IMG/VR virus record: IMGVR_UViG_3300026290_000001
DNA length: 64,000 nucleotides
Direction: 5' to 3' (one strand)
DNA from: a virus
The position numbers were made by a program, and so were the translations under genes. Positions 4,997-63,199 of the stretch are shown in pieces. Numbering within the stretch: the stretch's first letter is position 1; each line of letters begins with the position of its first letter. Below the pieces are notes generated by a model. The model ran no database searches, had not been told where the DNA came from, and was given only the letters and a program-made list of their open reading frames with translations.

Positions 4997-5032
4997 ATTA
5001 AATTTAAAAAATCTCAAAAAATCATTTTTAAG

Positions 5033-5097
5033 AATCCCAATATATAGGGATTTCTAAACCCGAAAATTTGAACCAAATTAAAGATTTGTTATGATAC
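5033..5097. repeat. Repeat B: partner of repeat A
   Basis: 5033-5048 equals 2448-2463 (direct). 5065-5078 (AATTTGAACCAAAT) is the reverse complement of 2498-2511, with an imperfect extension to about 5097. Lies 16 nt past the stop of the recombinase gene. Confidence 0.7.
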
Positions 5098-5112
5098 AAA
5101 ATAAAAACATAA

Positions 5113-6117
5113 TTATTGATAGAAATATTGAGTATAACTTTGTTGCTTGTGTTCAAACGTTTGTTTTGCGTAAATGCCCGTAGTTTGAATATCATCATGA
5201 CCTAAAAGTTCTTGTAATACCGACATTGGACAACCGTTATTTAGCATCAAGGTTGCGAAAGTATGTCTGAGCATATGGGGATGAGTTCTCTTGTCAAGCC
5301 CTGCACGTTTACCTATTGCTGCTATTTCTCGTTGAATACCTCGATTGCTTAATCTTCTATATTCCTGCCGTTCTGTTACAAATAATGCTTCACAGTCATC
5401 CTTACGACTTTCAAGATATTTTTTAAGGTAAATTGCAGCTCTAGCAGAATAGAATACAATTCGCTCTTTGTTTCCTTTGCCTAATACCTTAATCGTCCGA
5501 TTTGATTGTCCTATATCATCTTTATTTAGTGCCGATATTTCAGATAATCGACAACCTGTTGAATACATAATTTCAGTTAATGCTTTTTCTCGCAAAGTGA
5601 AACAACTTTCACGGAATAGTTCCAATTCTTCAATTGTTAATGCCTTTGCCATTGCTTTTCCCACTTTATAAGGTTTAATTCTAATCATCGGATTTTCTTC
5701 AATAATCTGTTCCTCACAAAGCCATTCAAAGAAACTGCGAAGTACTGAGCGAATTGTCTCAACAGTACTTTTAGCATTTACTGTTGGGTCGCTTTCCCGA
5801 TCATCCAGATAGTTAATTATGTCCTGCTTGGTTATTTCATTTACTGGTTTTTCTTCGGTTCTATCGGTAAATATTTTAAGATGAAGTCGATAATTATCAA
5901 TAGTTATTGGACTTAATCCTTGCCGTTTTTTATCCTTCAAAAACAGTTTTATGTTTTTCCGCAAATTATAATATTCTGGATCGCTGTTTTGTTTTATAAC
6001 TCTGTATTCATCAAGAATGGAGGCTAATTGATTTTTAGCCTCCATCTTATTCATGCCTTTTTCTATGATTCCATCTACAATTTTAGCATATAGCTCATAA
6101 TTGAGATTAGGGTGCAT
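5113..6117 (-). CDS. tyrosine recombinase (XerC/XerD-like phage integrase family)
   Basis: N-terminal SAM-like core-binding domain (ITIDNYRLHLKIF, TIRSVLRSFFEWL). Catalytic segments TGCRLSEI, HPHMLRHTFAT and LGHDDIQTTGIYA. RBS AAAGGAGG upstream. Confidence 0.9.
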   Translation of the reverse strand: MHPNLNYELYAKIVDGIIEKGMNKMEAKNQLASILDEYRVIKQNSDPEYYNLRKNIKLFLKDKKRQGLSPITIDNYRLHLKIFTDRTEEKPVNEITKQDIINYLDDRESDPTVNAKSTVETIRSVLRSFFEWLCEEQIIEENPMIRIKPYKVGKAMAKALTIEELELFRESCFTLREKALTEIMYSTGCRLSEISALNKDDIGQSNRTIKVLGKGNKERIVFYSARAAIYLKKYLESRKDDCEALFVTERQEYRRLSNRGIQREIAAIGKRAGLDKRTHPHMLRHTFATLMLNNGCPMSVLQELLGHDDIQTTGIYAKQTFEHKQQSYTQYFYQ

Positions 6118-6218
6118 AGAATACCTCCTTTTATTTAGTTGTTACTGAAGGTTCATAGTCTACTGCGAAGTAACTTCTTAATACACATTTGCGAAGTCAG
6201 AAAACTTTTTAACCAATA

Positions 6219-6335
6219 TCAAACAACCCCGACAATTTCTCTAACTTTTTCCCTATACATATTAGGCACAAAATCAATTATAATTCGCCCACTTTCTACT
6301 GCATATACCCACATTCCTAATATAGCTTCACTCAT
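6219..6335 (-). CDS. small hypothetical protein (38 aa)
   Basis: Not in the ORF track (under 60 aa). ATG at 6333-6335 preceded by AAAAGGAG; translates MSEAILGMWVYAVESGRIIIDFVPNMYREKVREIVGVV*. Its position after the fibre genes resembles xkdX-type mini-genes, but the family is not confirmed. Confidence 0.35.
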   Translation of the reverse strand: MSEAILGMWVYAVESGRIIIDFVPNMYREKVREIVGVV

Positions 6336-6385
6336 ATCATTCATCTCCTTTTAGATTAAACAATTCGGTTCTTAACATATCGATT

Positions 6386-6616
6386 TCAGCCATCATCAAA
6401 GTGAGTAGAAGTGCTATTCCTTCTGCATCTTCGTTGAAAGCCAACTTCGATATAGTCATTCTTGTTGAACACTTGCTCATCATATTCCCAACCACTAAAC
6501 CCCTTCATGGCGTCAATATCTTCTTCCTCAATTCGCACTATATTCGTCCGAACATAGACTGTATCAGCATTCACTTCAATGGGCTTAACTGTTTCCTGTG
6601 TCCCTCTTATTCTCAC
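6386..6616 (-). CDS. hypothetical protein downstream of the fibre genes
   Basis: 76 aa with TVYVRTNIVRIEEED..FSGWEYDE, as seen in small post-fibre proteins. The last ~15 residues (RRCRRNSTSTHFDDG) look atypical, so the 3' end may be frameshifted. Confidence 0.4.
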   Translation of the reverse strand: MRIRGTQETVKPIEVNADTVYVRTNIVRIEEEDIDAMKGFSGWEYDEQVFNKNDYIEVGFQRRCRRNSTSTHFDDG

Positions 6617-6691
6617 GCTTTATCACCTCTTTATAGTATTTTCCTTGATAGGCTTCTATTCGACCCATTCGACCAATTACCACTGTTATTA

Positions 6692-7843
6692 TTAAAAATA
6701 CACGAGGCGAGCGCCGATAACCGAATACTTTTCAGACTCCGAATAACCCACATGCAGCCGAAACGCCCCCGCCTTATCCGCAGCCGACCAATCACCACCG
6801 AAACGCGGCAAGCGCGAAACATTCAGAACCGCGGAATCGGGATAATGCGTGCTTTCGCTTCCGTTTGCTGTTTTGACGATAAAACCCGTTTCCGTACCAC
6901 CTTGTATGTCGTCTATGTAACCGACTATATTCGTTGTCGCACCCTGTCCGTAATTTGTATATCCAGAACCAATATCGTTAAAACTTTCATTGCCGATTAG
7001 GATGTTTCGGTCTGCATCACTAAATAATCCGTCAATCCAATAGTAAATATTACCCCAAAAATCTTCTATGCCACAAAATTTTAATTGTTGTTTTCCTGTA
7101 GTTTCACCATAGAACATACCTTTAGCATTTGTAGCACCCGTATTAACTTTGGCACTATTCCCATCGACATAACCTCTGCCTAAAGCAGTTTGCCAATCCC
7201 TACTCTTAAACATCACCGTACCTAAGACTTGCAACATTAAAAGTTGAAAATAAGCCATTTGGTCATAACCACTGCCATTCGCCTGTGCAATAGTTCTAAA
7301 TGCACCGATAGTTTCATAAGCGGTTGTTATTTTTCCGCTTAAACTTCTTAATTTAGAACCGTCAGAATATCCTAAATAAGCTGAAATGTAACACTTGGCT
7401 TTTTCGGTTGTACCCCTCATATGTGCTAAACATTTATACCCACTATCTACCTTTGCATTAGCATATCTTACATACAAGTCAGTCCCAATGGTTTCAAATT
7501 TCCACCAAATCTTAGGAAATTCAATCATTACGTCACCATCTGCACCACTTGTAATGTCTGCATTTGTCCCGTCAATTTTTTTAGTATAATCGTTTGGATT
7601 TAGATAGTATTGCACCACTCCATTTTTAAGTAAACATGGTTTAATCTGATTAAATGGAAACTTGTCTTGCCAACTACCATAAGAAAAATTGCCATTATTT
7701 CCTTGGGCTGGAGTAAAACCTATTGCATTATCTGTATAGGCTAAAGCAGTTTCGGGGTTGCTATTTGTAGTATCAATTTTGATGCCATATATTTTAGGTG
7801 GTGATTTTACTGGTTTTCTTTTCCTAATTAATGCCTCACCCAT
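6692..7843 (-). CDS. receptor-binding protein with C-type-lectin/FGE-like fold and Mtd-like (DGR-target-type) C-terminus
   Basis: FWGNIYYWIDG resembles the GNVWEW motif of FGE/CLec folds. The C-terminus RFGGDWSAADKAGAFRLHVGYSESEKYSVIGARLVYF parallels the Bordetella-phage Mtd variable region (FGGNWNN..NIGARGV). Locally GC-rich and A-poor. Confidence 0.6.
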   Translation of the reverse strand: MGEALIRKRKPVKSPPKIYGIKIDTTNSNPETALAYTDNAIGFTPAQGNNGNFSYGSWQDKFPFNQIKPCLLKNGVVQYYLNPNDYTKKIDGTNADITSGADGDVMIEFPKIWWKFETIGTDLYVRYANAKVDSGYKCLAHMRGTTEKAKCYISAYLGYSDGSKLRSLSGKITTAYETIGAFRTIAQANGSGYDQMAYFQLLMLQVLGTVMFKSRDWQTALGRGYVDGNSAKVNTGATNAKGMFYGETTGKQQLKFCGIEDFWGNIYYWIDGLFSDADRNILIGNESFNDIGSGYTNYGQGATTNIVGYIDDIQGGTETGFIVKTANGSESTHYPDSAVLNVSRLPRFGGDWSAADKAGAFRLHVGYSESEKYSVIGARLVYF

Positions 7844-8686
7844 TTACCTCACCACCTTTAGCTGAATTGGCAAACTAACTTCAGGTTTATCCATCGCATA
7901 TAATGTTATAGAATTATTAGCAGTTGTTACACGATAAATTTTACCCCACTCATTTACTCGTTCTTTATCTGTAGCAAATGTGCCACTCATTACTACGTCA
8001 ACTATAGGATTGTCATTTGACGATATTCCAGTTACCGTTTGCGTTTTCGTATATGGGGCTTCTGTACCTGTCCAAGTAGTATCAAGTGTTGTCGTAAGCG
8101 TAGCGTGATATACGTGTCCTAATTTACTTATTGTCGCACCATCTGCCAGATGGTTAGCAAACTTTTTCCCAACCCCACTAACCAAAGGTCTTTTATCGAC
8201 AATTATATTTACAGTTTTATCCGCATTTGTACTAATAGTACCAATTAATAGACTTCCATCTGTAATTGTTCCATCTATACTACTAGCAAAATTTCCATCA
8301 TTTTTAAGATATATAGTATAGGTTATACTGGCCGATACTGGATTAATAGTAAAAGTTGTATCAGATGTTTTAGTTATAGTATTTATTGTATTTCCACTAA
8401 ATGTTTCACCAGTACCACTAGCAATAACTATACTTAATGTATCTGTACCACTCGTATAAAATGCAGATTTTATTCTAAATGGACTATCCAATTCTAATGA
8501 ATTTAATAAAAATCTCGCATCTTTCCATGTTGCTCCTAAATCTCTAGGATCAGTACCACCTAAAGTAACATTTGCATCATCAGCAACATGGATAATATCT
8601 AAACCACTATATTTATTTCTAATTTCTGCTACTTGCTCATCTGTATGTATAGCAAATACTTTGCTATTTTTAATTACACAAATCAT
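7844..8686 (-). CDS. tail fibre protein (short paralogue)
   Basis: Residues ~70-181 are homologous to residues ~106-219 of the neighbouring 587-aa fibre (..TDTLSI.I.SG.GE.F....NTITKTSDTTF.INPVSAS.TY.IYLKNDGNF..). The C-terminal domain is distinct. Confidence 0.6.
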   Translation of the reverse strand: MICVIKNSKVFAIHTDEQVAEIRNKYSGLDIIHVADDANVTLGGTDPRDLGATWKDARFLLNSLELDSPFRIKSAFYTSGTDTLSIVIASGTGETFSGNTINTITKTSDTTFTINPVSASITYTIYLKNDGNFASSIDGTITDGSLLIGTISTNADKTVNIIVDKRPLVSGVGKKFANHLADGATISKLGHVYHATLTTTLDTTWTGTEAPYTKTQTVTGISSNDNPIVDVVMSGTFATDKERVNEWGKIYRVTTANNSITLYAMDKPEVSLPIQLKVVR

Positions 8687-8705
8687 AAATTTATATCTCC
8701 CTCCT

Positions 8706-10469
8706 TTACACTATTATCCATGAACCTTTATTTCCCTCAGAATTAGGTTCAGGAGAGAAAATAGGACTGCCACTATAATTAGAACAACGTACATATCCAT
8801 TGTTATATGCAAATATATCAATTAAACCTGCATCACCAACATTAGAATTTGAAGCAAATAAAGAACCTTCTTCACAACAATCTATATTGTATTCCACATT
8901 GTTTTTTGCAATAATTCCCGAACTAAATCCTTTTCCACCATTATTAACTGTTAATCCTGATTTATTTCCACAAACACATATATTTTCTGCCATCATACCC
9001 CCACCAGTAGAATCATAAGCACCTTTTTCAGAATTACCATTTGCTATACAATTATTTATATAAATCCCTGCGAAATTGGAACATTCATAACCATTTTCAT
9101 TATTGGAAGATGCTGTATATGGTGCAGTAATACCTGCTCTGTTAGTTACAAAAAAACCAGATTTAAAACCAGATACTCCAACATTTGTACCACAAGTTAT
9201 GCTTGCGCCTGTTGTTGATAATATTCCATAATTAGTACTAGCATTAGAACCAATAATTGCAACATTATTTAATAATCCTAATTCAGAACGGTCAGCAACA
9301 ATACCATTACAATTTGTAAATTTTAACGTTGTAGTTAAAACAACAAAATCTCCACCCGTTAATGCAACAGCAGGGAATGGAGTACCTTGAAAAGTATTTT
9401 TAACCGTTACTACGTTTCCATTTATATTTATAATTTCATACATTCCACGTAAAACTTCATGATTACCTGTGCCTGTAGTATTTTTTATAATAGCATATTG
9501 TCCTACTTGCATACCTACTGCACTAGCAACTGTTATAGGTACAGACCAATTTCCAGCAGTATCAGAAACACTACCTACGTTTGAAACGGTTGTGGCAATA
9601 GGAGTAGCACCAATTATTCTTATATTAGAACCATTAACATGATTTATTTTAAGTTGAGAAGTATGTTCATACATTTCTGTTAATAAAGAAATAGTTACAG
9701 TAGTTGAACTAGTTATACTAGCAGTTTTTATACTATCTAAAGCATTTGGTATTGTAGTAAAATCACATCCAGTAGAGCCAACAGTTATAGTTTTATTGGC
9801 ATCTATAATAGTATCTGTTAAATGTTTAATAAATTCACTACCTACAGCACTAACTAAAGGTCTTTTATCAGTAATTGTATTTATAGATTTATCTGCATTG
9901 GTACTAATTGTTCCTATTAAAATACTTCCATTTGGAATACTACCATTTGTACTTTTATCAAAATTACCATCATTCTTTAAATAAATATTATAGGTCACGC
10001 TAGCACTTACTGGATTAATATTAAAAGTAGTATCAGATGTTTTTGTAATAGTGTTTAAAGTAGTACTATTAAAACTTTCACCTGAACCCGAAGTAATTAT
10101 TATTGATAAAGTATCTGTTACTGAATTATATTCAGCAGATTTTATCTGAAACGGATACCCATATACATCTTCTACATTACTTTTTAAACTATCATGATCA
10201 TATGCTGTAAATAATCTTCCTATTATCGTTCCATTACTCCATGTCTGTGCTGTCCCTTGAAATCCCCTAGTTACACCAACCAAACTACTACCACTTTTAT
10301 CTGTATATAAAATAGTTTCTGCATTATTACCAGTTCCTATAGTAGCAAGATTAGGTGCATTGGGAAAAACTGAAATATCAGTTACGGGGATGGTAGTTGC
10401 AATACTATTTATATCAGAAGAAAGTGTTGTAAGAGGGGAGTTAATTTTAGCATTATACATTGTTTCCAT
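8706..10469 (-). CDS. tail fibre/tailspike with C-terminal parallel beta-helix
   Basis: N-terminus of the widespread prophage-fibre type (ATIGTGNNAETILYTD..VTRGFQGTAQTWSNGT..TAYDH). The C-terminal half consists of Gly/Asn-rich ~22-aa turns (NCNGIVAD, NVAIIGSNAS, GASITCGTNVG, NNCIANGNS), typical of PbH1 beta-helix depolymerases. Confidence 0.7.
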   Translation of the reverse strand: METMYNAKINSPLTTLSSDINSIATTIPVTDISVFPNAPNLATIGTGNNAETILYTDKSGSSLVGVTRGFQGTAQTWSNGTIIGRLFTAYDHDSLKSNVEDVYGYPFQIKSAEYNSVTDTLSIIITSGSGESFNSTTLNTITKTSDTTFNINPVSASVTYNIYLKNDGNFDKSTNGSIPNGSILIGTISTNADKSINTITDKRPLVSAVGSEFIKHLTDTIIDANKTITVGSTGCDFTTIPNALDSIKTASITSSTTVTISLLTEMYEHTSQLKINHVNGSNIRIIGATPIATTVSNVGSVSDTAGNWSVPITVASAVGMQVGQYAIIKNTTGTGNHEVLRGMYEIININGNVVTVKNTFQGTPFPAVALTGGDFVVLTTTLKFTNCNGIVADRSELGLLNNVAIIGSNASTNYGILSTTGASITCGTNVGVSGFKSGFFVTNRAGITAPYTASSNNENGYECSNFAGIYINNCIANGNSEKGAYDSTGGGMMAENICVCGNKSGLTVNNGGKGFSSGIIAKNNVEYNIDCCEEGSLFASNSNVGDAGLIDIFAYNNGYVRCSNYSGSPIFSPEPNSEGNKGSWIIV

Positions 10470-11687
10470 TTACTCTATCACCCCTTCATAATTAACCTTC
10501 CAAACATCATTAACTTTGCCATAGATGCCAATGATAGGTTTCCATTTTCCATTAATTTTTACATAAACATTATTAATATTTTTCCAATTACCATTTACTT
10601 TATAAATCAGCGCAGTATTGTAAACTGAAATATCATTAATATTTAATAATAAATTATCATTAGCATTGGTTTCTACAAATACATTTGTAGTTTCATGTAT
10701 ATTTATATTTAAACTATCATTAGAATTAATATCAACATTTTTGTGAATATAACTTTCATTAATAGACAATCTAATTGAATCAGTTATATTATTAGATGCA
10801 GTTAAATTATTTACATTATCCGTTGAAGAAATATTTAATGTATCACTAACATTTGGCAAGGCAGTAACATTTGCATTGTCAGCACAATAAATATTAATAG
10901 CATCATTTTTATTAAACTCATTAATAGTTAAATCTATGCCATTAATATCTAAATTTTCAGATGTGCTAATATCTACCAATATATTTTTGGTTTCATTTAC
11001 ACCTATATTTAAATTATCACCAGTATTTATATTAGTAATTAATTGACTTTCTTCGGTAATATCTAAATATAAATTGTTTTCAATATCCTTGGATAATACT
11101 AATAAAGAATCTTCTTGTAGATTGATATCTAAAGAATCTTCTAGGTTTAAAGAAATATATGATGATTCATCTATTGTTAAATTAATATCATCTTCTACTT
11201 CAATGTTTTTATCTAAATTATTAGTTTCACTTAATGATAAATCAAGATCGTCATAAGTTTTTATATTGTAAGCATCAGGAGAATCCCATATAGATAATTC
11301 TTGTATATTTATAGACAAAGAATCATTAACATTTATATTTACATTTAATGATTGCGAATCACTTACAGTTAAGTTAAGTGCATCTTGAAGTGTATTAGTT
11401 ACTTCTAAATCCGAAACATCATTTAGTGTAATTATAGGCGGGTCAGTACCTGAAGCATTTACAAGCCTTTCACTTTCCTCTACAGATGTAATAATTAAAT
11501 TGTCAGAAACACTAAAAGTCCAAATTTTATTACTTTCTTCAGTTATAGTTATTGTTAATTCATCATGTACATTTATTTCTATAACTGCTGATTCTGTAAT
11601 ATTTAGTGTTAATTCATCCGAAGAGGAAGATGATATATCGTTTAATGTGTTGAAAGATGTTTGGTTAAAACGTCCTTGATTAAACAA
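10470..11687 (-). CDS. repetitive acidic fibre-like structural protein
   Basis: About 25 iterations of an 11-12-aa unit of the form D-x-L-x-I-x-I-x-E-x-S (DELTITITEES, DSLSINIQELS, DSLDINLQEDS, DSLNINIHETT). The C-terminus has a triple NGxWK motif. Confidence 0.5.
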   Translation of the reverse strand: MFNQGRFNQTSFNTLNDISSSSSDELTLNITESAVIEINVHDELTITITEESNKIWTFSVSDNLIITSVEESERLVNASGTDPPIITLNDVSDLEVTNTLQDALNLTVSDSQSLNVNINVNDSLSINIQELSIWDSPDAYNIKTYDDLDLSLSETNNLDKNIEVEDDINLTIDESSYISLNLEDSLDINLQEDSLLVLSKDIENNLYLDITEESQLITNINTGDNLNIGVNETKNILVDISTSENLDINGIDLTINEFNKNDAINIYCADNANVTALPNVSDTLNISSTDNVNNLTASNNITDSIRLSINESYIHKNVDINSNDSLNINIHETTNVFVETNANDNLLLNINDISVYNTALIYKVNGNWKNINNVYVKINGKWKPIIGIYGKVNDVWKVNYEGVIE

Positions 11688-11747
11688 TAAATATCACCTC
11701 CTCATTAATTAAAAATAGGACTATATATAATTTTTATATTAATAATA

Positions 11748-12128
11748 TTAACTAATATTAATTGTAAGTGTTACGGTAAGAAGCCAGTTTCCACCGGATT
11801 TTGTGCCTAAATTTTCCACCTTCCTATTCAACATAACTCCTCCACTAGAAGCATTAAAAACTCCCCATTCCTGCCATGCAAAATTAGCATCAGTAGTTCC
11901 AAAACTAGATTTAAATACTAACTGATTATTAGTTCTTGTAGGGAAAGTGGCTTCCATGCCCTTTCTTACTTTGTTAGAACTTGCTTGTAAATCAATCTGT
12001 GAAGCTGCAAAAGCAGTAGTAGAATCACCGACTCCGATATGCGAATTTGTCGAATTAAAGAATACGGGTGAATCATCATTAATTATACAAGCTGCTATAA
12101 AATCTCTACCACTATTTGTTAATGCCAT
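11748..12128 (-). CDS. conserved phage tail-associated protein (function unknown)
   Basis: 126 aa with the pattern MALTNSGRDFIA..IGVGDSTTAF..Q.DLQA..NKVRK..ANFAWQEWGVFN..GGVMLNR, recalled from prophage fibre clusters. No named family assigned. Confidence 0.45.
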   Translation of the reverse strand: MALTNSGRDFIAACIINDDSPVFFNSTNSHIGVGDSTTAFAASQIDLQASSNKVRKGMEATFPTRTNNQLVFKSSFGTTDANFAWQEWGVFNASSGGVMLNRKVENLGTKSGGNWLLTVTLTINIS

Positions 12129-13104: not shown

Positions 13105-14397
13105 TCAGTCATGAGATGAATTGGCTCTGTTCTGTTCATATATAATCCATGATTTTCTTGCATTAATTCTTTGCATGTTAGATATTTTCGGTGTCTTCAT
13201 ACCTCTGGGTGCATTACTAAAATCTATTTTTTCACCATCTATACCCATAAGAATGGCATAACCCGTAGACATTCTACCTTTAATAAAATATTCATTACCT
13301 ATATACCTTACTTTATCAAACTTCCTAAATCCTTCTATTTTACCTGTAGGTATCTTCTGATGACTTCTTACTCCTTTTGCCTGTTGGTAATCGCCTTTAG
13401 GGATACACTTTTTTAATACAGCTTTTTCAGTTTTAAAGCTTACATCAATTAACCCTATATCTTCAATATTATTTAAACAGGCAATAGCTACAGCATCGTA
13501 GTAATGCTCTTTTGGTAATCCCATTAGCTGTCTATGTTCTTTGGTAATAAATCCAAAGGTTTCTTTTGCATTTGGTAGCTGTCTTAATAATTGTTGTCTT
13601 ATACTATTCATCTGTGTTGTGTGTTTTAATTGTCCTTTAATTTTACCATTCTTCTTTAATTTAATTCCTCCTTTGTGCAAACTATTATGACAAGTTTTAC
13701 AAAGTGTAATTAAATTTTCTGCATCATCTGAGCCACCATTTTTTCTAAAAACTATATGATGTACCTCTAATCTGCTGTCTTTACTTTTTCCTTTGCAATA
13801 CTGGCAAATATATTTATCTCTACTTAATACATAAGCTTTAGTATTAGCAAATCCATAATTAGTTCCTTTTTGATAAAGCCATTTATTACTTAATACTGCT
13901 GGATTTTTTAAAGCATGTGGGTCAAATGTTGCTGTTTCTATTATTATATTTGTAATGGGCATTATTGATTTTGCAAAATCAATTTCTTTTAAGTGTGAAT
14001 TAATTTTACTTGTCATTGTAGGAGAAAATCTATCTTTTTTAATGCTGTTTTTCCTATTATTAAATCTAGGTTCCCTATATCTAGTTTTCCTATTCCTTCT
14101 AGTTCTCCTATATTTAGCTCTTTTGTCCATTTTGTCAGATATATCATTTCTAATTTCTACTTCTGATATATAATACACTTCATTTTCGTCATTTGCTACT
14201 GCACTTCCTATTTTACTACTACCAGTATCAATTCCTAAAGTTAAATCTTGTGTATAGTCTGTAGCATGATATAGTAATTTAATTGTAAATGGAGTTCTTC
14301 TTATGCATTTTGCTTTACCATCTTTTAACAATAATCTTGCTATTGCTGGTTTACAAGGCATTAAAGGACTCCCATCTTCATTAATTACATAAACCAT
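13105..14397 (-). CDS. iscB: IscB RNA-guided endonuclease (PLMP-RuvC-bridge helix-HNH-RuvC)
   Basis: Domains in order: PLMP (SPLMPCKPAIARLLLKDGKA), RuvC-I (LGIDTGSSKIG), Arg-rich bridge helix (RAKYRRTRRNRKTRYREPRFNNRK) and RuvC-II (IIIETATFD). Then HNH (CQYCKG..EVHHIVFRKNGGSDDAENLITLCKTCHNSLH), RuvC-III (EHYYDAVAIA) and a C-terminal beta domain (FDKVRYIGNEYFIKGRMSTGY). Confidence 0.9.
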   Translation of the reverse strand: MVYVINEDGSPLMPCKPAIARLLLKDGKAKCIRRTPFTIKLLYHATDYTQDLTLGIDTGSSKIGSAVANDENEVYYISEVEIRNDISDKMDKRAKYRRTRRNRKTRYREPRFNNRKNSIKKDRFSPTMTSKINSHLKEIDFAKSIMPITNIIIETATFDPHALKNPAVLSNKWLYQKGTNYGFANTKAYVLSRDKYICQYCKGKSKDSRLEVHHIVFRKNGGSDDAENLITLCKTCHNSLHKGGIKLKKNGKIKGQLKHTTQMNSIRQQLLRQLPNAKETFGFITKEHRQLMGLPKEHYYDAVAIACLNNIEDIGLIDVSFKTEKAVLKKCIPKGDYQQAKGVRSHQKIPTGKIEGFRKFDKVRYIGNEYFIKGRMSTGYAILMGIDGEKIDFSNAPRGMKTPKISNMQRINARKSWIIYEQNRANSSHD

Positions 14398-52003: not shown

Positions 52004-53210
52004 ACTCTAAAAAATTAAGTCCTAATTCTTTAAAATCATTCATTACATTATATTTATAATTACGTACTTTATAATGTGAATACAATAAAGAACCACTTCT
52101 ACTTTCTCGAATTCGTTTTCTAGGCATCATTAAAATATATCTATTTGCACCTTTTGATTCAACAAATTTTAATTCCTTTAATATCAATTTTGCAAGATTA
52201 AGAATATTATCAGGATAATTATTAACCATTTTAAATCTAATATTATCAAGTTTATGATCATCTTCTAAAAATAATAGATAAATAGGTTTATTATTAAATC
52301 GAGATAGTTCTTGCTTTAATTTATTTAATTCTAATTTTCTTTCTTCTTTATGTTTTTGGAATTGTTTAAAATATGATTCTTCATTTTTTCTAATAGTTTC
52401 TTGTCTTTTTAACTCTTTTTCCTTCTTTTTATCAGAATATTGTTTATTTTTATTAAATACTTCTTCTGAAAGTAAAAAATTATTATTTTTAAAAATGAGT
52501 CCATTAATATCAATAATATATTTCTTAATATCTTTATCAAAAGATATTAATTTATTATGCAACAAATGTCTTTTCTCGTTATCATAATATTTACCATTTG
52601 CAATTTTAAATCTAAAATCACTTAAGCCCAATATATTCAAATGAGTATAATTAAACATAAATAATTTGTACATTGGATCAAAATAAAAACCTGTAAATTG
52701 TTCTATTGCTTTATCTCTAAACCTATTTCCTATTTCTGCTTTTTCAATATATTTATCCGTCCCTAAAATCCAAATATCATTTATATCTGCTAATTTATAT
52801 AATTCATGTCTTTCTAAACATTCTGTTGCTATTGGACTACATTGAAATTCGAAAACAAATCTTTTATCACCTATTTCAAAATACAAATCAGGTCTTTGCC
52901 TAGTTTCTGGTATATATGATTCTAACTTTATATTTGATAAACCATCTTGCTTTAACAACCAATTATAAAGCATTATTTTACCTTTAATATGTTCGTCTGT
53001 TTCAGGTTCATAATAAATACCTTCACAATTAATATTTTTTTCTTTATGTCTAAAATATGGATAAACTATTTCTCCGTGACAATACTCATAAAAATTACCA
53101 CAATCGGGACAAAGTAATCTATTTTCTTCAGACCATTTTTTTAGAATAAATTTATCATATTTACCATCAAAACAATTAATAATTGTATTACCAATCTTAC
53201 AAGTTAACAA
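51966..53210 (-). CDS. CoiA-like nuclease-family protein
   Basis: LLCPDCGNFYEYCHGEIVYPYFRHK..ETDEHIKGKIMLYNWL..LESYIPETRQRPDLYF..FVFEFQCSPI..ERHELY..DIWILG follows the CoiA pattern (CP.C..HF.H..ES.EH...K..E..qRPD..iE.Q.S..eR...Y...Wil). Confidence 0.7.
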   Translation of the reverse strand: MLTCKIGNTIINCFDGKYDKFILKKWSEENRLLCPDCGNFYEYCHGEIVYPYFRHKEKNINCEGIYYEPETDEHIKGKIMLYNWLLKQDGLSNIKLESYIPETRQRPDLYFEIGDKRFVFEFQCSPIATECLERHELYKLADINDIWILGTDKYIEKAEIGNRFRDKAIEQFTGFYFDPMYKLFMFNYTHLNILGLSDFRFKIANGKYYDNEKRHLLHNKLISFDKDIKKYIIDINGLIFKNNNFLLSEEVFNKNKQYSDKKKEKELKRQETIRKNEESYFKQFQKHKEERKLELNKLKQELSRFNNKPIYLLFLEDDHKLDNIRFKMVNNYPDNILNLAKLILKELKFVESKGANRYILMMPRKRIRESRSGSLLYSHYKVRNYKYNVMNDFKELGLNFLEYEDLLEAKNIDK

Positions 53211-53226
53211 TAAAATTATTCCTCCT

Positions 53227-53466
53227 TTAAACAGACAATATAAAAGCTAAAAAACAAAATGCGATAATGCCAATCACTATATTTGCAGTTGTATTTGCAA
53301 CCGGATCAATAGTATTATTATTATTTTGCTTTACACTTGAATTTAAATAAAAATTACTATTCCTTTTTGCATTTCTCTTTTTTCTATCATTCTCTCTTAA
53401 TGCATAAGTAACTCCTCTTGCTATTGACCTATTTAAAACTCCATAATTTCTGGGTCTCATCATCAT
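53227..53466 (-). CDS. tail-anchored small membrane protein
   Basis: Basic N-terminus and a single C-terminal TM (IVIGIIAFCFLAFILSV). Confidence 0.4.
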   Translation of the reverse strand: MMMRPRNYGVLNRSIARGVTYALRENDRKKRNAKRNSNFYLNSSVKQNNNNTIDPVANTTANIVIGIIAFCFLAFILSV

Positions 53467-53486
53467 AATTTTTATTCCAACCTTCC

Positions 53487-53702
53487 TTAATTAATACCCA
53501 CAATATCATCCATATCCTGTGCCAACTCACTATAATATTCTTTCTTACATTCCCAATCACACCAAGGTGTTTCTGATCCTTCAGGTAATTGTTTAGAACA
53601 TTTCCAACAGTATTTAAACAATTTTTCCTTAACTTTAAATCTACCGAAACTAGTATTATTAATACCATTATTATATTTATCTTTTATTTCTCTCATTTCC
53701 AT
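53487..53702 (-). CDS. small zinc-finger protein
   Basis: CWKCSKQLPEGSETPWCDWEC. Preferred over the overlapping ORF at 53429-53668. Confidence 0.4.
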   Translation of the reverse strand: MEMREIKDKYNNGINNTSFGRFKVKEKLFKYCWKCSKQLPEGSETPWCDWECKKEYYSELAQDMDDIVGIN

Positions 53703-53997
53703 ATTTCCTTCTCTTTCTAATTACTATTTGCAATACCTCATCTGTATTATTAAACAACAATAAATCTAAATTATTGCCACATACAAAATTAGATACAATT
53801 CCATCTTTGTCTACTTTTTTCATAACCGCCCCATCTTCCTCAAAAAGCAAACTGCTCCCTTTAATTATTTTTATGTATGCTTGTTCTTTTGCCATATATA
53901 TACCATCTAATAAATTTGAAATATTAATTATACCTGTCTCATCTTCCAATTCAAATTCTGCATTATCGTTATAAATTAACTGACCGTATAATATCAT
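53677..53997 (-). CDS. hypothetical protein
   Basis: 106-aa ORF preceded by RBS GGAGG. No motif recognised. Confidence 0.4.
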   Translation of the reverse strand: MILYGQLIYNDNAEFELEDETGIINISNLLDGIYMAKEQAYIKIIKGSSLLFEEDGAVMKKVDKDGIVSNFVCGNNLDLLLFNNTDEVLQIVIRKRRKYGNERNKR

Positions 53998-54102
53998 ATA
54001 TAAACCTCCAATTTTTTATTTAATTCTCAGCCTACATTCTTAAACTTTAAATCTTACCTAACCCCCCTAAATTTTTATACACATTTTTACTATACTTACT
54101 GT

Positions 54103-54188
54103 AGAATTTCACTCTAAATTCAACGTGAATATGTTTTATGAAGTTCTATATGGTTAGAGTAGCAAAAGCGTTTTTAGAGTGAAATTCT
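54103..54188. repeat. perfect 16-bp inverted repeat with 54-nt spacer
   Basis: AGAATTTCACTCTAAA (54103-54118) pairs with TTTAGAGTGAAATTCT (54173-54188). The right arm overlaps the methyltransferase stop codon. Confidence 0.8.
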
Positions 54189-55014
54189 ATTGATTAGATA
54201 GTAATTTTTCTTTATGTTCCCTTACACGTTTAATTGCTAAATTAAAATATTGATCATGTGGTTCACTCAGACTCCATTCAAAACCTATGTAATTTCTTTC
54301 AGTATTTAAACAAGCTATCGCTGTTGTGCCTGAACCTATGCAATTATCTAAGACTAAATCTCCTTCATTTGTATATGTTTTAATTAGATATTCAAATAAT
54401 TTTACTGGTTTTTGAGTGGGGTGTGGTAATTTTTCTTTAGAATTTGAATTAACTATAGGATTATATATTACAGTTGATGGATTTTTTAATTTTGCATTGT
54501 ACACATCATAACTTCTTCCAGCATAATCTGTATTAAAAACAATTTCATTATCTTTTCTTTTTGAGATAGAACTTCTAAAATTAATATTATTATTTTCTTG
54601 CATTTGTTTCATTCTTTCGCTTTTACGTTCTATCATTTGTCTATTATATGTATATTTATTTTTTGCAAATATTAATATATTTTCATGATATTTTAAATGT
54701 CTATATTTTGCATTTGCAAAATTACTCGCTCTATCTTTTTCCCATATTAGTTCTTCTTTAAACCAATCAATATTACTACAAATTAATTTGCTTGTAAATG
54801 GTTGACTTGCTGTTAATACTATAGCACCATTATCTTTTATAATTCTTTTATACTGTTCCCAAAGTTTATCAAAAGAAATTAAACTATCCCATTTTGCTAT
54901 TGTAGTTCCATAAGGTAGATCACATAAAATCATATCTATACTTTTATCAGGTAATAAACACATACCATTTTCACCAATACAATCTTCGTTATAAATAGTA
55001 TTTAATTTAATCAA
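54187..55014 (-). CDS. DNA methyltransferase (beta-class N6A/N4C type), orphan
   Basis: Motif IV CDLPYGTT comes first, then HPTQKPVKL and motif I DNCIGSGTTAIAC. No adjacent restriction gene. Confidence 0.85.
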   Translation of the reverse strand: MIKLNTIYNEDCIGENGMCLLPDKSIDMILCDLPYGTTIAKWDSLISFDKLWEQYKRIIKDNGAIVLTASQPFTSKLICSNIDWFKEELIWEKDRASNFANAKYRHLKYHENILIFAKNKYTYNRQMIERKSERMKQMQENNNINFRSSISKRKDNEIVFNTDYAGRSYDVYNAKLKNPSTVIYNPIVNSNSKEKLPHPTQKPVKLFEYLIKTYTNEGDLVLDNCIGSGTTAIACLNTERNYIGFEWSLSEPHDQYFNLAIKRVREHKEKLLSNQ

Positions 55015-55089
55015 TTATGTATTATTCCTCCTATATTTATATTACTAAAATAATACTACGACTCAAAATTAAAAAATTATTTCTTACTC

Positions 55090-55413
55090 TTAATCTTTTT
55101 TCTCTTTCTTTTCCTTAGATTTTTTTGCCTTTTGTAATCTTTCTCCCATTTCTTTCTTTTGAGCCTCAGTTAACTTTTTCTTTTTGGTTGGTGCTCTAAA
55201 TGAAATCAACTTCTTATCACAAACAAATTCTTTTCCCACTAATTCATTATCTTCATCAAATTGATCACTAACATGCTGATATGATTCAGGATACTGTTTA
55301 CAAAGTTTATCCAGTTTGTTTAAATCTGCACGAATAAAAGTTATTATTTGTGCTTTTTTAGAATCTTCATCAATCCCTACGCAAGTATAACGCTCCATTT
55401 TTTCTAATGCCAT
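55090..55413 (-). CDS. hypothetical lysine-rich protein
   Basis: 107 aa with a basic C-terminal tail (KKKKLTEAQKKEMGERLQKAKKSKEKKEKKD). Confidence 0.4.
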   Translation of the reverse strand: MALEKMERYTCVGIDEDSKKAQIITFIRADLNKLDKLCKQYPESYQHVSDQFDEDNELVGKEFVCDKKLISFRAPTKKKKLTEAQKKEMGERLQKAKKSKEKKEKKD

Positions 55414-55454
55414 ATGTATAAATTCCTTCTTTCATTTTTATATTAATAAAATAA

Positions 55455-56204
55455 TTAAAATTCCACTAATCTATTTTTCGCTATTTCACAATATTTTTCT
55501 TCTAATTCAATTCCAATACATTTACGTTTAAGATTTCGTGCCGCCAATAAAGTTGTTCCTGAACCACAGGTAAAATCTAAAATAAGATCGTTTTCATTTG
55601 TGTATGTATTAATTAAATATTCCATTAATTCTAATGGTTTTTGTGTAGGATGAAATAAATTATTATTTGGATTTGCAAAATTTAATATATTTTTAGGATA
55701 ACCTTTAGCATTACTATTTCCAAAATGCTTTTCTTTCCCAAAAGTATATTCTCCATCCACTTTATTTTCTCTACTTGGTCTATTATTATTAAATTCTCCA
55801 TAAATTAACCCTTGCGGATTATAAATGCATTGATTTTTATAAAAAACTAAAACATCTTCTATTGCTCTCATTGGTTGTTTTTTAGCATTTAAATGACCAC
55901 TTGGTTTAGTTTTTATCCATTTCCAATCATATTTATATTCTTTAATATTACTAATTCTTAAAAAACTACTAAAAGGTTCTCCTCCAAACAATAATGTAGG
56001 TGTTGTATTTTTTGTTAATTTATGTAATCTATCCCACATGTCATTAAATTTGATAATTTCATCCCATTTACATTTAGTAGTACCGTATGGTGGGTCAGTA
56101 ATTATTGCATCAAATTTAATACCTTTCTCAATAATCTTATCCATTACCTCTAAACAATCACCTTGAAATAATCTTATGTATTCGTCTTTATAGTATAATT
56201 TCAA
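55455..56204 (-). CDS. DNA methyltransferase (beta-class), tandem paralogue 1
   Basis: ITDPPYGTT, HPTQKPLEL and LDFTCGSGTTLLAA. TTG start. The N-terminal ~48 aa and C-terminal ~66 aa are near-identical to the gene at 56249-57034, while the centre differs. Confidence 0.9.
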   Translation of the reverse strand: MKLYYKDEYIRLFQGDCLEVMDKIIEKGIKFDAIITDPPYGTTKCKWDEIIKFNDMWDRLHKLTKNTTPTLLFGGEPFSSFLRISNIKEYKYDWKWIKTKPSGHLNAKKQPMRAIEDVLVFYKNQCIYNPQGLIYGEFNNNRPSRENKVDGEYTFGKEKHFGNSNAKGYPKNILNFANPNNNLFHPTQKPLELMEYLINTYTNENDLILDFTCGSGTTLLAARNLKRKCIGIELEEKYCEIAKNRLVEF

Positions 56205-56248
56205 TTTATGTAAATATATCTCCTTTCATTTTTATATTAATAAAATAA

Positions 56249-57034
56249 TTAAAATTCCACTAATCTATTTTTCGCTATTTCACAATATTTTTCTTCTAAT
56301 TCAATTCCAATACATTTACGTTTAAGATTTCTTGCCGCTAACAATGTTGTCCCTGAACCACAGGTAAAATCTAAAATAAGTTCGTTTTCTTTTGTGTATG
56401 TATTAATAAGGTATTCTAATAGTTCAATTGGTTTTTGAGTCGGATGTAATTTTTTCCCTGACATACTAGCGTTGCTTAAAGTATAAATACTTGTTGGATG
56501 TCTATCTTTATATTCTTTATGCCCCAAGTCTTTTATGGTATGTCCTTCTCTTAATGTGCTATTTCTTGAACCATAAAATGTTTTATTAACTTTTTTTATA
56601 TCATCTCGTTTTGTTTTTTGAGGATAATAATTCATTTCATTACCTTTTGAGAAAACTGCTTTTGCTTTACTAAAAATTAAAATATTTTCATGTACTCTAC
56701 CTACTTGAAAATTCATCATTTGAAAATTAGATGGTTTTACTTTATCCCAAATAATTTCATATCTAAATAGTTGAGGATTACTCATAATTAAAGCACTCGT
56801 AAAAGGTTGAGAACCATTCAATACTATTGCACCTTTATCTTTGATTAATTGAGTAATTTTATCCCACATCTTATCAAAAGGAATTATCGTGTCCCATTTA
56901 CATGCTGTAGTACCATAAGGTGGATCAGTTATTATCGCATCAAATTCAATACCTTTCTCAATCAATTTATCCATCACTTCTAAACAGTCACCTTGAAACA
57001 ATCTTATGTATTCATCTTTATAGTATAATTTCAT
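56249..57034 (-). CDS. DNA methyltransferase (beta-class), tandem paralogue 2
   Basis: ITDPPYGTT, HPTQKPIEL and LDFTCGSGTTLLAA. The last 43 aa are identical to paralogue 1. Confidence 0.9.
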   Translation of the reverse strand: MKLYYKDEYIRLFQGDCLEVMDKLIEKGIEFDAIITDPPYGTTACKWDTIIPFDKMWDKITQLIKDKGAIVLNGSQPFTSALIMSNPQLFRYEIIWDKVKPSNFQMMNFQVGRVHENILIFSKAKAVFSKGNEMNYYPQKTKRDDIKKVNKTFYGSRNSTLREGHTIKDLGHKEYKDRHPTSIYTLSNASMSGKKLHPTQKPIELLEYLINTYTKENELILDFTCGSGTTLLAARNLKRKCIGIELEEKYCEIAKNRLVEF

Positions 57035-57107
57035 TTATGTAAAAATTTCACTTCCTTTTTATATTTATATTTATAAAATAATAAAATCCTAAAATCTAAT
57101 AAATAAA

Positions 57108-59713: not shown

Positions 59714-60592
59714 TTAAATAGCACAATTATTCATACTTTTTCTTATATCATCTTGTGAAGGATGTAAATATATTTGAGTAGTAGAAAGCGAACCATGACC
59801 AAGTATCTGCTGAAGAGCCTTGAGATTCCCACCATTTTCTAAAAAATTAGTAGCAAATACATGTCTTAATGAATGACAAGTTATTACATTACTATGTTTG
59901 TTAAATATTCTTTCAACACTACTACTTTCTAATTTTTCACTTTTGTTGCTTAAAAATAAATATTTACTTCCTAATACATTATAAGCATACTTATAATTCT
60001 TTCTATCATCAATCGCTTTTTTAATAATCTCAATAGCAGTTTCATTCAATGGTATTATTCTTTGCTTACTTCCCTTACCAATAACTTTAAGATTCTTTCT
60101 TTTAAAATTAATATCATCCAACTCAATATTTAATGCTTCAGATATTCTTAAGCCAGTATTCAGAAGTAAAGCAACTATATAATAATTCCTATCACATTCA
60201 TTCTTCCTTATTCTTTCCATAAATTTTATTGCTTCAGATTTAGTAATACTAGTTGGAGATGTTAATTGTTTTTGTATGCGTATATAATCCTGTCCCAATA
60301 TCACCAAACTATCCTGATACCCCATCTTAACCAAAAATTCATTATAACTTTTCAAAGCACTTAACCTTCTATTTATTGTCTTAGCATCAACATTTCTTTC
60401 TTTAAGTAAATATTCCTTATACTCCGCAATCTGATCTCTACTAATAATCTGGGGTTCAATTCCAAAATACTCAAAAAACAAACCAATATCATGAGAATAA
60501 GATTTTATTGTATTGATAGATTTACCTTGTTCTACTAGGTGGTTGATGTATTCGGTTAAATAATTTTCATTTGCAACGAGATTCATATTCAT
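59714..60592 (-). CDS. tyrosine recombinase (XerC/XerD-like)
   Basis: Core-binding N-terminus (SINTIKSYSHDIGLFFEYF). Catalytic segments TGLRISEAL, HSLRHVFAT and LGHGSLSTTQIYLH. Confidence 0.9.
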   Translation of the reverse strand: MNMNLVANENYLTEYINHLVEQGKSINTIKSYSHDIGLFFEYFGIEPQIISRDQIAEYKEYLLKERNVDAKTINRRLSALKSYNEFLVKMGYQDSLVILGQDYIRIQKQLTSPTSITKSEAIKFMERIRKNECDRNYYIVALLLNTGLRISEALNIELDDINFKRKNLKVIGKGSKQRIIPLNETAIEIIKKAIDDRKNYKYAYNVLGSKYLFLSNKSEKLESSSVERIFNKHSNVITCHSLRHVFATNFLENGGNLKALQQILGHGSLSTTQIYLHPSQDDIRKSMNNCAI

Positions 60593-62514: not shown

Positions 62515-62600
62515 AGTATATAGATATGATCTTTGATAATAGCATAGTAACCTTAGTTTGCCTTACGCAAGCTATCTTTACAAGAAAGGAGGTGGCACGA

Positions 62601-62726
62601 ATGATAATGACTGAAAAAATGAACATAGAAATTGAAAACATTGAAAACATTTTAGCTGATAATGAACTATCCGATACAGAAAAAATCAAGCTTATTGAAC
62701 AGACTATAAAAGCAATAAGAAGGTAA
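62601..62726 (+). CDS. 41-aa helical peptide, copy 1
   Basis: ATG at 62601 lies 8 nt after AGGAGGTG; translates MIMTEKMNIEIENIENILADNELSDTEKIKLIEQTIKAIRR*. The longer track ORF starting at 62526 lacks an RBS. Confidence 0.5.
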   Translation: MIMTEKMNIEIENIENILADNELSDTEKIKLIEQTIKAIRR

Positions 62727-62751
62727 TACCTTAAATAAAAATAGGAAGGAG

Positions 62752-62940
62752 GTGAAAAAAATGAAATTATCAAAAATTGATAACAACGGCATAACCTTAT
62801 ATCTAACAATCATAAACGGCATTAACATGCTAACCGGAAACCCTGCTAAAGCTCTAAAATTTGAAACAGCTAAAGCAGCAAACAATTATAAAAACAATCT
62901 CACTCATCCAAACTTGCAGGGATTACAAGTAAGTCTATAA
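62752..62940 (+). CDS. hypothetical protein
   Basis: 62 aa with RBS GGAAGGAGGTG. Sits between the two copies of the 41-aa peptide gene. Confidence 0.5.
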   Translation: MKKMKLSKIDNNGITLYLTIINGINMLTGNPAKALKFETAKAANNYKNNLTHPNLQGLQVSL

Positions 62941-62979
62941 AACCGAGATTTTATCTTAACAGGAAAAGAGGTGAAAAAA

Positions 62980-63105
62980 ATGATAATGACTGAAAAAATG
63001 AACATAGAAATTGAAAACATTGAAAACATTTTAGCTGATAATGAATTAACAGATAGTGAAAAAATCCAGTATATTGAACAGACTATAAAAGCAATAAGGA
63101 GGTAA
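62980..63105 (+). CDS. 41-aa helical peptide, copy 2
   Basis: Not in the ORF track. ATG at 62980 after AAGAGGTG; translates MIMTEKMNIEIENIENILADNELTDSEKIQYIEQTIKAIRR*. It differs from copy 1 at 4 residues. Confidence 0.5.
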   Translation: MIMTEKMNIEIENIENILADNELTDSEKIQYIEQTIKAIRR

Positions 63106-63199
63106 TACCTTTTACCCGATAGCACTCACACCATAACAGAGTGCTATTCGTAAAGGGTATTAAAAACCCTAAAAATAAAATTAGAAGGGAATTGATAAA

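Follow-up and report, generated by a model that had tools for sequence, protein, structure and literature searches.

The 3' end of a tail protein gene in the viral sequence analyzed here (IMG/VR record IMGVR_UViG_3300026290_000001; the whole stretch of 64,000 nucleotides is hereafter called the window) is very probably a true variable region (VR) of a diversity-generating retroelement (DGR). The VR would now be a fossil, left by the deletion of a cassette of ~1.3 kb that carried the template repeat (TR) and the reverse transcriptase (RT) gene. The gene and its 3' end include the following features:

6692..7843, minus strand: target gene, coding for a 383-aa tail / receptor-binding protein with a Mtd/TaqVP-like C-type-lectin (FGE-like) fold
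6695..6841, minus strand: probable fossil VR of ~147 nt, encoding ...PDSAVLNVSRLPRFGGDWSAADKAGAFRLHVGYSESEKYSVIGARLVYF, delimited by composition and by homology to the VRs of relatives
6703..6715, minus strand: GC-only 13-mer GGCGCTCGCCTCG, the adenine-free 3' end of the VR

The C-terminus of the 383-aa protein reads ...RFGGDWSAADKAGAFRLHVGYSESEKYSVIGARLVYF and is followed by the stop codon at 6692-6694. The protein was assigned to phrog_5302, "tail protein" (PHROGs, E 1e-74); Pfam gave no match for it or for its tail neighbours, and the PDB sequence search returned TaqVP alone, as a weak match (E 0.46). It has the fold of TaqVP, Mtd, and TvpA (CLec / FGE-like), with the variable residues located at the C-terminus. 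The phage is SPbeta-like, and the genes around the target in its tail module include YomG/YomF-like ones, holins, and an SLH-domain amidase. The phage genome is ~135-137 kb long, in a circular or terminally redundant assembly (contigs of 134,847 to 138,134 nt), and a megablast search of window positions 5000-12000 against GenBank phages found no match.

Other features of the window are reported here as observations in their own right. Two adjacent tail-fibre genes contain diverged direct repeats (8141-8440 and 9813-10112, 75% identity over 300 nt), and further diverged repeat families, at 74-91%, are found near 54-57 kb (55413-57031) and 62.5-63.1 kb (62573-63111). Within the tail module, an RRXRR + HNH endonuclease gene of 430 aa (13105-14397, minus strand; Pfam RRXRR 2.2e-54, HNH 3.6e-14) looks like a homing-endonuclease-type insertion. 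One block, corresponding to window positions ~53,200-57,100, differs between strains (positions 1-3900 of contigs L138 and L139): one contig has four N6_N4 methyltransferase genes, the other a CoiA-like nuclease and a single methyltransferase.

The nucleotide composition of the VR stands apart from that of the genome around it. The region 6695-6841 contains A17 C32 G51 T47, that is 56% GC and an A fraction of 0.12, in a window with 28.7% GC overall. On the coding strand, 6701-6802 has 13 A in 102 nt (A13 C19 G40 T30), compared with a minus-strand average of 39.3 A per 102 nt over the 64 kb. The end of the target gene is the only place in the window where a minus-strand stretch of 102 nt has 13 A or fewer, and the only one where a stretch of this length reaches 55% GC. 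The compositional anomaly is thus real, unique in the window, and far beyond chance for this phage genome. Elsewhere in the window, a count as low as 13 A per 102 nt is reached only on the plus strand, at 55077-55203; this stretch is not GC-rich and is therefore probably a T-rich tract. The GC-only 13-mer at 6703-6715 is free of adenines, which makes it the invariant end of the repeat, and it may have an IMH-like function; its counterpart in the relative L059, GGCGCTCGCTC, is the same in VR and TR. In studies of the phage BPP-1, the IMH and a downstream hairpin/cruciform are reportedly needed for retrohoming; in the window, the sequence downstream of the VR is replaced by a scar.

Several of these traits had been recorded in the initial annotation, and most hold as described. 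The WGNIYYWIDG motif ahead of the C-terminus is there (FWGNIYYWIDG, ~75 residues before the end of the protein), the count of 13 A in 102 nt at 6701-6802 is exact, and the GC-only 13-mer is present. The annotation was also right that a variable region exists at this gene end; its extent had to be revised, as the VR/TR pairs of the relatives place the beginning of the VR upstream, at ~6841. The idea itself, a DGR-type VR on a CLec receptor-binding protein, is borne out by the fold and by 58 homologous loci with a TR and an RT directly downstream.

These loci come from a search that found 1,629 homologues of the target protein. Their C-termini share the scaffold ..Y.D.G.L.AS.LP.FGG.W...D.AGAF.L.V..SAS.....IGARL.AL, with hypervariable residues interspersed among the scaffold positions. 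A total of 132 loci was collected from Bacillota genomes and IMG/VR, several of them from Oscillospiraceae, Christensenellales, and Lachnospiraceae, and the 114 with a complete gene end were used for the counts. In most loci, scanning with tolerance for adenine mismatches showed that the final ~150 nt of the gene recur directly 3' of the stop codon, on the same strand. VR and TR are direct repeats ~180-200 nt apart. In L058, L059, L060, and L006, essentially all the mismatches within the repeat have A in the downstream copy. Among 37 non-redundant loci, 64% of the 1,489 TR adenines were changed in the VR, compared to 3.3% of the 3,580 non-A positions. The orthologues of the target are thus diversified by a DGR at homologous positions.

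The 957 changed TR adenines of these 37 loci (e.g., L058 1787-1971 and L060 4875-5054) became G in 661 cases, T in 223, and C in 73. The A>G skew reaches scaffold codons, with T-G-T-F encoded by the TR and A-G-A-F by the VRs, and it could be due to selection or to a biased RT.

Gene order in the DGR-bearing relatives is always the same: target, TR just past the stop codon, RT, and a conserved small ORF. The RT is ~340-362 aa long (Pfam RVT_1; phrog_1423, "Reverse transcriptase", 1.8e-112), and it follows the TR without an intervening avd or other accessory gene. The state of the cassette in the 114 loci was as follows:

TR and full RT: 58 loci
TR only: 4 loci (L006, L077, L088, and L089)
TR and RT fragment: 2 loci
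RT fragment without TR: 2 loci
neither TR nor RT: 37 loci
too short to judge: 11 loci

The VR of the window matches the VRs of these relatives position for position, and those VRs pair with a TR at adenine-only mismatches. Its A fraction of 0.12 falls within the range of the DGR-bearing relatives (0.06-0.2). It has K and E at positions where the homologues rarely do, which suggests that the lost TR differed from the known ones or that the sequence has drifted since the loss.

The stop codon of the target gene (6692-6694) and the first position of the small ORF (6616) are only 75 nt apart. Three features are found in and next to this spacer:

6666..6690, minus strand: TR scrap AATAACAGTGGTAATTGGTCGAATG, in a 25-nt alignment with VR segment CGTTTCGGTGGTGATTGGTCGGCTG
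6585..6653, minus strand: remnant of the 3' end of the RT gene, the last ~20 codons, reading AYQGKYYKEVIKRENKRDTGNS before the stop and overlapping the start of the next ORF
6386..6616, minus strand: conserved small ORF of 76 aa, with tblastn matches in 44 loci (phrog_18126, E 1.8e-9, function unknown)

The TR scrap matches the VR at 17 of 25 positions, and all eight mismatches have A in the scrap. Its score was equalled or beaten in one of 5,000 shuffles of the spacer (0.0002) and in none of 5,000 random 75-nt windows of the genome. By blastn, the scrap corresponds to positions 65-83 of the L060 cassette, which are inside the L060 TR (E 0.003), and it lies directly past the stop codon, where the relatives have their TR. 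The scrap is short, and the placement is uncertain for its 3' half, GGTCGAATA, which takes part in a 9-nt near-duplication at the junction (GGTCGAATG / GGTCGAATA). Concerning the RT remnant, the window positions 6619-6642 are an exact 24-nt match to positions 1334-1357 of the 1,368-nt L058 cassette (E 1.3e-8). The compared RT C-termini are those of L058, which ends in PYTEKYYKEVIKIEKGKRDNAGS, and of L059, which has ..YTNKYYKEVIQRE.. The frame of the remnant extends ~30 nt into the small ORF, as it does in the relatives. The scrap and the remnant within the 75-nt spacer indicate that the locus once carried a TR and an RT. A promoter and terminator scan of 6000-7000 found nothing relevant to the scar.

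In the DGR-bearing loci, the interval between the target stop codon and the small ORF is 1,280-1,820 nt; the tblastn matches of the ORF are ~1,300-1,600 nt past the stop codon in loci with TR and RT and 18-150 nt past it in loci without. The ORF follows the RT in the DGR-bearing loci, and in the window it comes directly after the target gene. Its persistence in loci lacking the RT argues against a dedicated role in the DGR.

The same spacer bears on whether the lineage was ever a DGR target at all. The C-terminal module could have been recombined from a relative with higher GC, and tail-fibre tips are commonly exchanged; besides, 37 of the 114 loci have neither TR nor RT, and the 3' ends of some are A-rich and unremarkable (A fraction 0.25-0.35). 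We consider this origin very unlikely: the spacer holds both RT C-terminal codons and a TR-like scrap with adenine-only mismatches to the VR of the window itself, and the A fraction of the VR agrees with that of the DGR-bearing relatives. Moreover, even if the module had been imported, scar included, it would count as a fossil VR all the same.

Then, we looked for a DGR elsewhere in the phage. An ungapped scan in which a mismatch was allowed if the other copy had A, together with ordinary repeat finding, detected no second copy of the VR on either strand of the window. No RT match at E ≤ 1 was obtained by tblastn with eight diverse RTs of the family in the window and 10 kb of flank on each side, and the adenine-tolerant scan found no TR-like copy in these 10-kb flanks. 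The sequence examined directly in this way amounts to 84 kb. Coverage beyond it came from pattern scans of IMG/VR contigs: three TR-compatible patterns, one each for the 5' part, core, and 3' part of the VR, were designed so that any non-A base may be A while the scaffold bases are fixed. Their sole match in the two IMG/VR contigs of the phage (99.6 and 64.9 kb) was the VR, and they had no other match among 2.9 million viral contigs; these scans, which require exact matches, would miss a TR with a non-A difference within all three patterns. Window, flanks, and IMG/VR contigs together cover ~95% of the ~137-kb genome, with ~6.6 kb (window-equivalent 73.7-80.3 kb) and the host genome lying outside. 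A scan of metagenome contigs gave zero matches and did not recover the VR itself either, and is hence uninformative.

The initial annotation had reported that the window contains no TR and no RT, and for full copies the adenine-tolerant scans, the repeat finding, and the tblastn searches with eight RTs confirm this; the TR scrap at 6666-6690 and the RT remnant at 6585-6653 had been overlooked. It had also proposed looking for a repeat of the VR and for an RT in the larger genome, and neither was found in ~95% of the phage. Thus, no RT is encoded with the target, the last ~20 codons alone surviving, and of a TR/VR pair of ~100-150 nt with mismatches at TR adenines, only the 25-nt scrap is left. 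As TR and RT are deleted, mutagenic retrohoming from the locus itself is impossible.

The variability of the locus in the phage population was assessed on 13 contigs from at least 11 samples, which were probably related digester samples, and three assembly pipelines, compared as consensus sequences over 6386-8686. The contigs differ at 0-4 positions each. The 13 assemblies have one and the same VR, apart from a synonymous SNP at 6767 in a single contig, while comparable SNPs are present in the rest of the target gene and in the neighbouring gene. Coherently, the 90% protein cluster contains three variants, which differ at residue 177 or 195, outside the VR. The initial annotation had suggested looking, in metagenomic reads or related isolates, for hypervariability confined to specific codons; in these 13 consensus assemblies, the VR shows no site-restricted hypervariability. 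This invariance argues against ongoing diversification, with the consideration that assemblies, being consensus sequences, hide low-frequency variants within samples.

A VR that is orphan but live, diversified in trans by a DGR elsewhere on the phage, on the host chromosome, or on a co-resident prophage, would be compatible with the intact reading frame and the intact GC-rich 3' end of the VR, and remote targets are known for some DGRs, in Treponema and others (PMC5758913). A remote live DGR keeps some weight because the whole host genome and the ~6.6-kb gap of the phage lie outside the scans. Nevertheless, this reading is unlikely, since the scar demonstrates an in-place deletion of the cognate cassette, no RT or TR occurs in the 84 kb examined directly, the three patterns matched the VR only, both in the IMG/VR contigs of the phage and in all of IMG/VR, and the VR is invariant over 13 assemblies whose flanking positions vary. 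Between the two readings that the initial annotation had left side by side, an orphan or remote VR and a fossil one, the 75-nt scar, the lack of a TR in ~95% of the genome, and the invariant VR favour the fossil.

The population comparison also bears on the reality of the junction. Direct repeats ~180-200 nt apart, as VR and TR are in the relatives, are a classic source of misassembly, and an assembler could have collapsed the repeat and dropped the cassette. However, a collapse would fuse VR to TR with a loss of ~180 nt, not of 1.3 kb including the RT, and the 75-nt junction is base-for-base the same in every one of the 13 contigs reaching it, across different samples and assemblers (JGI; ENA MEGAHIT and SPAdes; Logan). 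The identity of the junction argues against an assembly artefact, which we regard as extremely improbable.

Two tyrosine recombinase genes are present in the window, both on the minus strand: one at 5113-6117 (334 aa, XerC/D-like), which separates the tail-fibre module from the holin/lysin genes, and a second at 59714-60592 (292 aa), near the right end of the window. The first (Pfam Phage_integrase, 3e-41) is two genes downstream of the fibre gene, a position that would suit a shufflon-like site-specific inversion of the gene end. No credible inverted repeats flank the gene end, all candidates being AT-rich pairs of 71-88% complementarity; no alternative C-terminal segments are found on the opposite strand; and relatives with or without a DGR have no such recombinase at the site. 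The probability of an inversion system is therefore close to nil.

The deletion of the cassette remains by far the best explanation of the locus. The ancestral layout, as shown by homology with the relatives, was target, TR, accessory-free RT, and small ORF. On the basis of the known DGR mechanism, in the ancestor the TR RNA would have been reverse-transcribed with misincorporation at adenines, and the resulting cDNA would have replaced the VR, rewriting ~20 codons presumably on the ligand-binding face of the C-type-lectin-fold receptor-binding domain. Deletions removed ~60 nt of the 5' part of the TR, along with ~1.25 kb that began in mid-TR and stopped ~20 codons short of the end of the RT gene. 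This left the 75-nt scar that now precedes the small ORF, composed of the 25-nt TR scrap and the 3' end of the RT gene. The G-rich, A-poor VR would be the final product of the ancestral mutagenesis, now an ordinary, vertically inherited coding sequence, and the receptor specificity of this ~137-kb SPbeta-like phage would be frozen in its last diversified state.

Losses of the same kind were found in other members of the family. At least three relatives (L064, L016, and L068) carry independent scars, each joining the first ~55-80 nt of the TR-RT cassette to its last ~35-75 nt at a different junction. The L064 scar (11119-11241) joins positions 1-55 of the L070/L008 cassette to 1351-1423, with a 7-nt overlap at the junction; the L016 scar (11113-11244) joins positions 15-80 of the L044 cassette to 1410-1443; the L068 scar (10894-11047) is similar. 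The TR-only loci keep a full TR with adenine-specific mismatches and have no adjacent RT; in one of them, from Salinibacillus aidingensis (L006, 11153-11394), the small ORF is directly 3' of the TR. RT fragments are kept in L067, L086, L092, and L113. The TR-only and RT-fragment loci form a decay series. Among the DGR-less loci, the A fraction of the gene end goes from 0.10-0.15, VR-like as in the window, to ordinary values of 0.25-0.35, a spread that would fit cassette losses at different times, or the existence of some branches in which a DGR was never present.

In the established DGR mechanism, that of BPP-1, TR RNA is reverse-transcribed with mutagenesis at adenines, and retrohoming follows (PMC5758913). 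The BPP-1 element, whose target is Mtd, is arranged as avd-TR-brt, whereas the relatives of the window have TR-RT without an accessory gene; the window protein shares 10-15% sequence identity with Mtd. Its identity with TaqVP of Thermus aquaticus (PDB 5VF4) is 14-18%; TaqVP is a cellular protein with an intact DGR, while the window protein belongs to a phage tail module (PHROG 5302). The arrangement of the relatives corresponds to architecture A1 (target-TR-RT; Wu et al. 2018, PMC5758913), matched by L058, L059, L060, and 55 others, none of which has an avd, HRDC, MSL, or CH1 gene separating TR from RT. In comparison with A1, only the target and the scars remain in the window. In the same survey, 29% of DGRs lack accessory genes, and lineage 3 lacks avd (Wu et al. 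2018, PMC5758913).

DGRs acting on Mtd-like tail proteins of temperate Bacillota phages were already known (PMC6199706, PMC11792537). By its description, the system of Faecalibacterium phage Lagaffe and others, temperate Bacillota phages in which a DGR diversifies the C-terminus of an Mtd-like protein, resembles the family studied here; in that work, DGRs without an activity signal were reported and deleted cassettes were not described (PMC11792537). Tentaclins (PMC10743442) were also considered for comparison and discarded, as their C-lec domain is N-terminal. Literature searches for fossil, orphan, or remnant VRs led to general DGR surveys only, and in the papers searched we came across neither a deleted cassette with scars nor a decay series within one target family. 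The idea of a fossil VR is in itself unsurprising, and the understanding of DGRs is unchanged by it.

TRs of the same family, ~70-80% similar, are carried by related phages that circulate in Bacillota. If the frozen VR were still a usable landing pad, a co-infecting or co-resident relative could rewrite it in trans. We consider this distinctly improbable, but, if true, DGR-less phages would borrow the machinery of their relatives, and the loss of the cassette would be functionally reversible.

An adenine-depleted, GC-rich gene end can be recognized as the footprint of a DGR even without TR and RT, the proof coming from synteny and small scars. Fossil loci of this kind escape DGR surveys that take the RT as their starting point. 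In this family, the cassette is missing from about a third of the loci, and at least four independent scars exist, including that of the window. This suggests that losing the diversifier, and thereby locking one receptor specificity, is common. For the phage of the window, this would mean a host range that is fixed rather than self-diversifying; for the family, the loci provide a well-documented decay series, usable for studying how often and why phages abandon targeted hypermutation.
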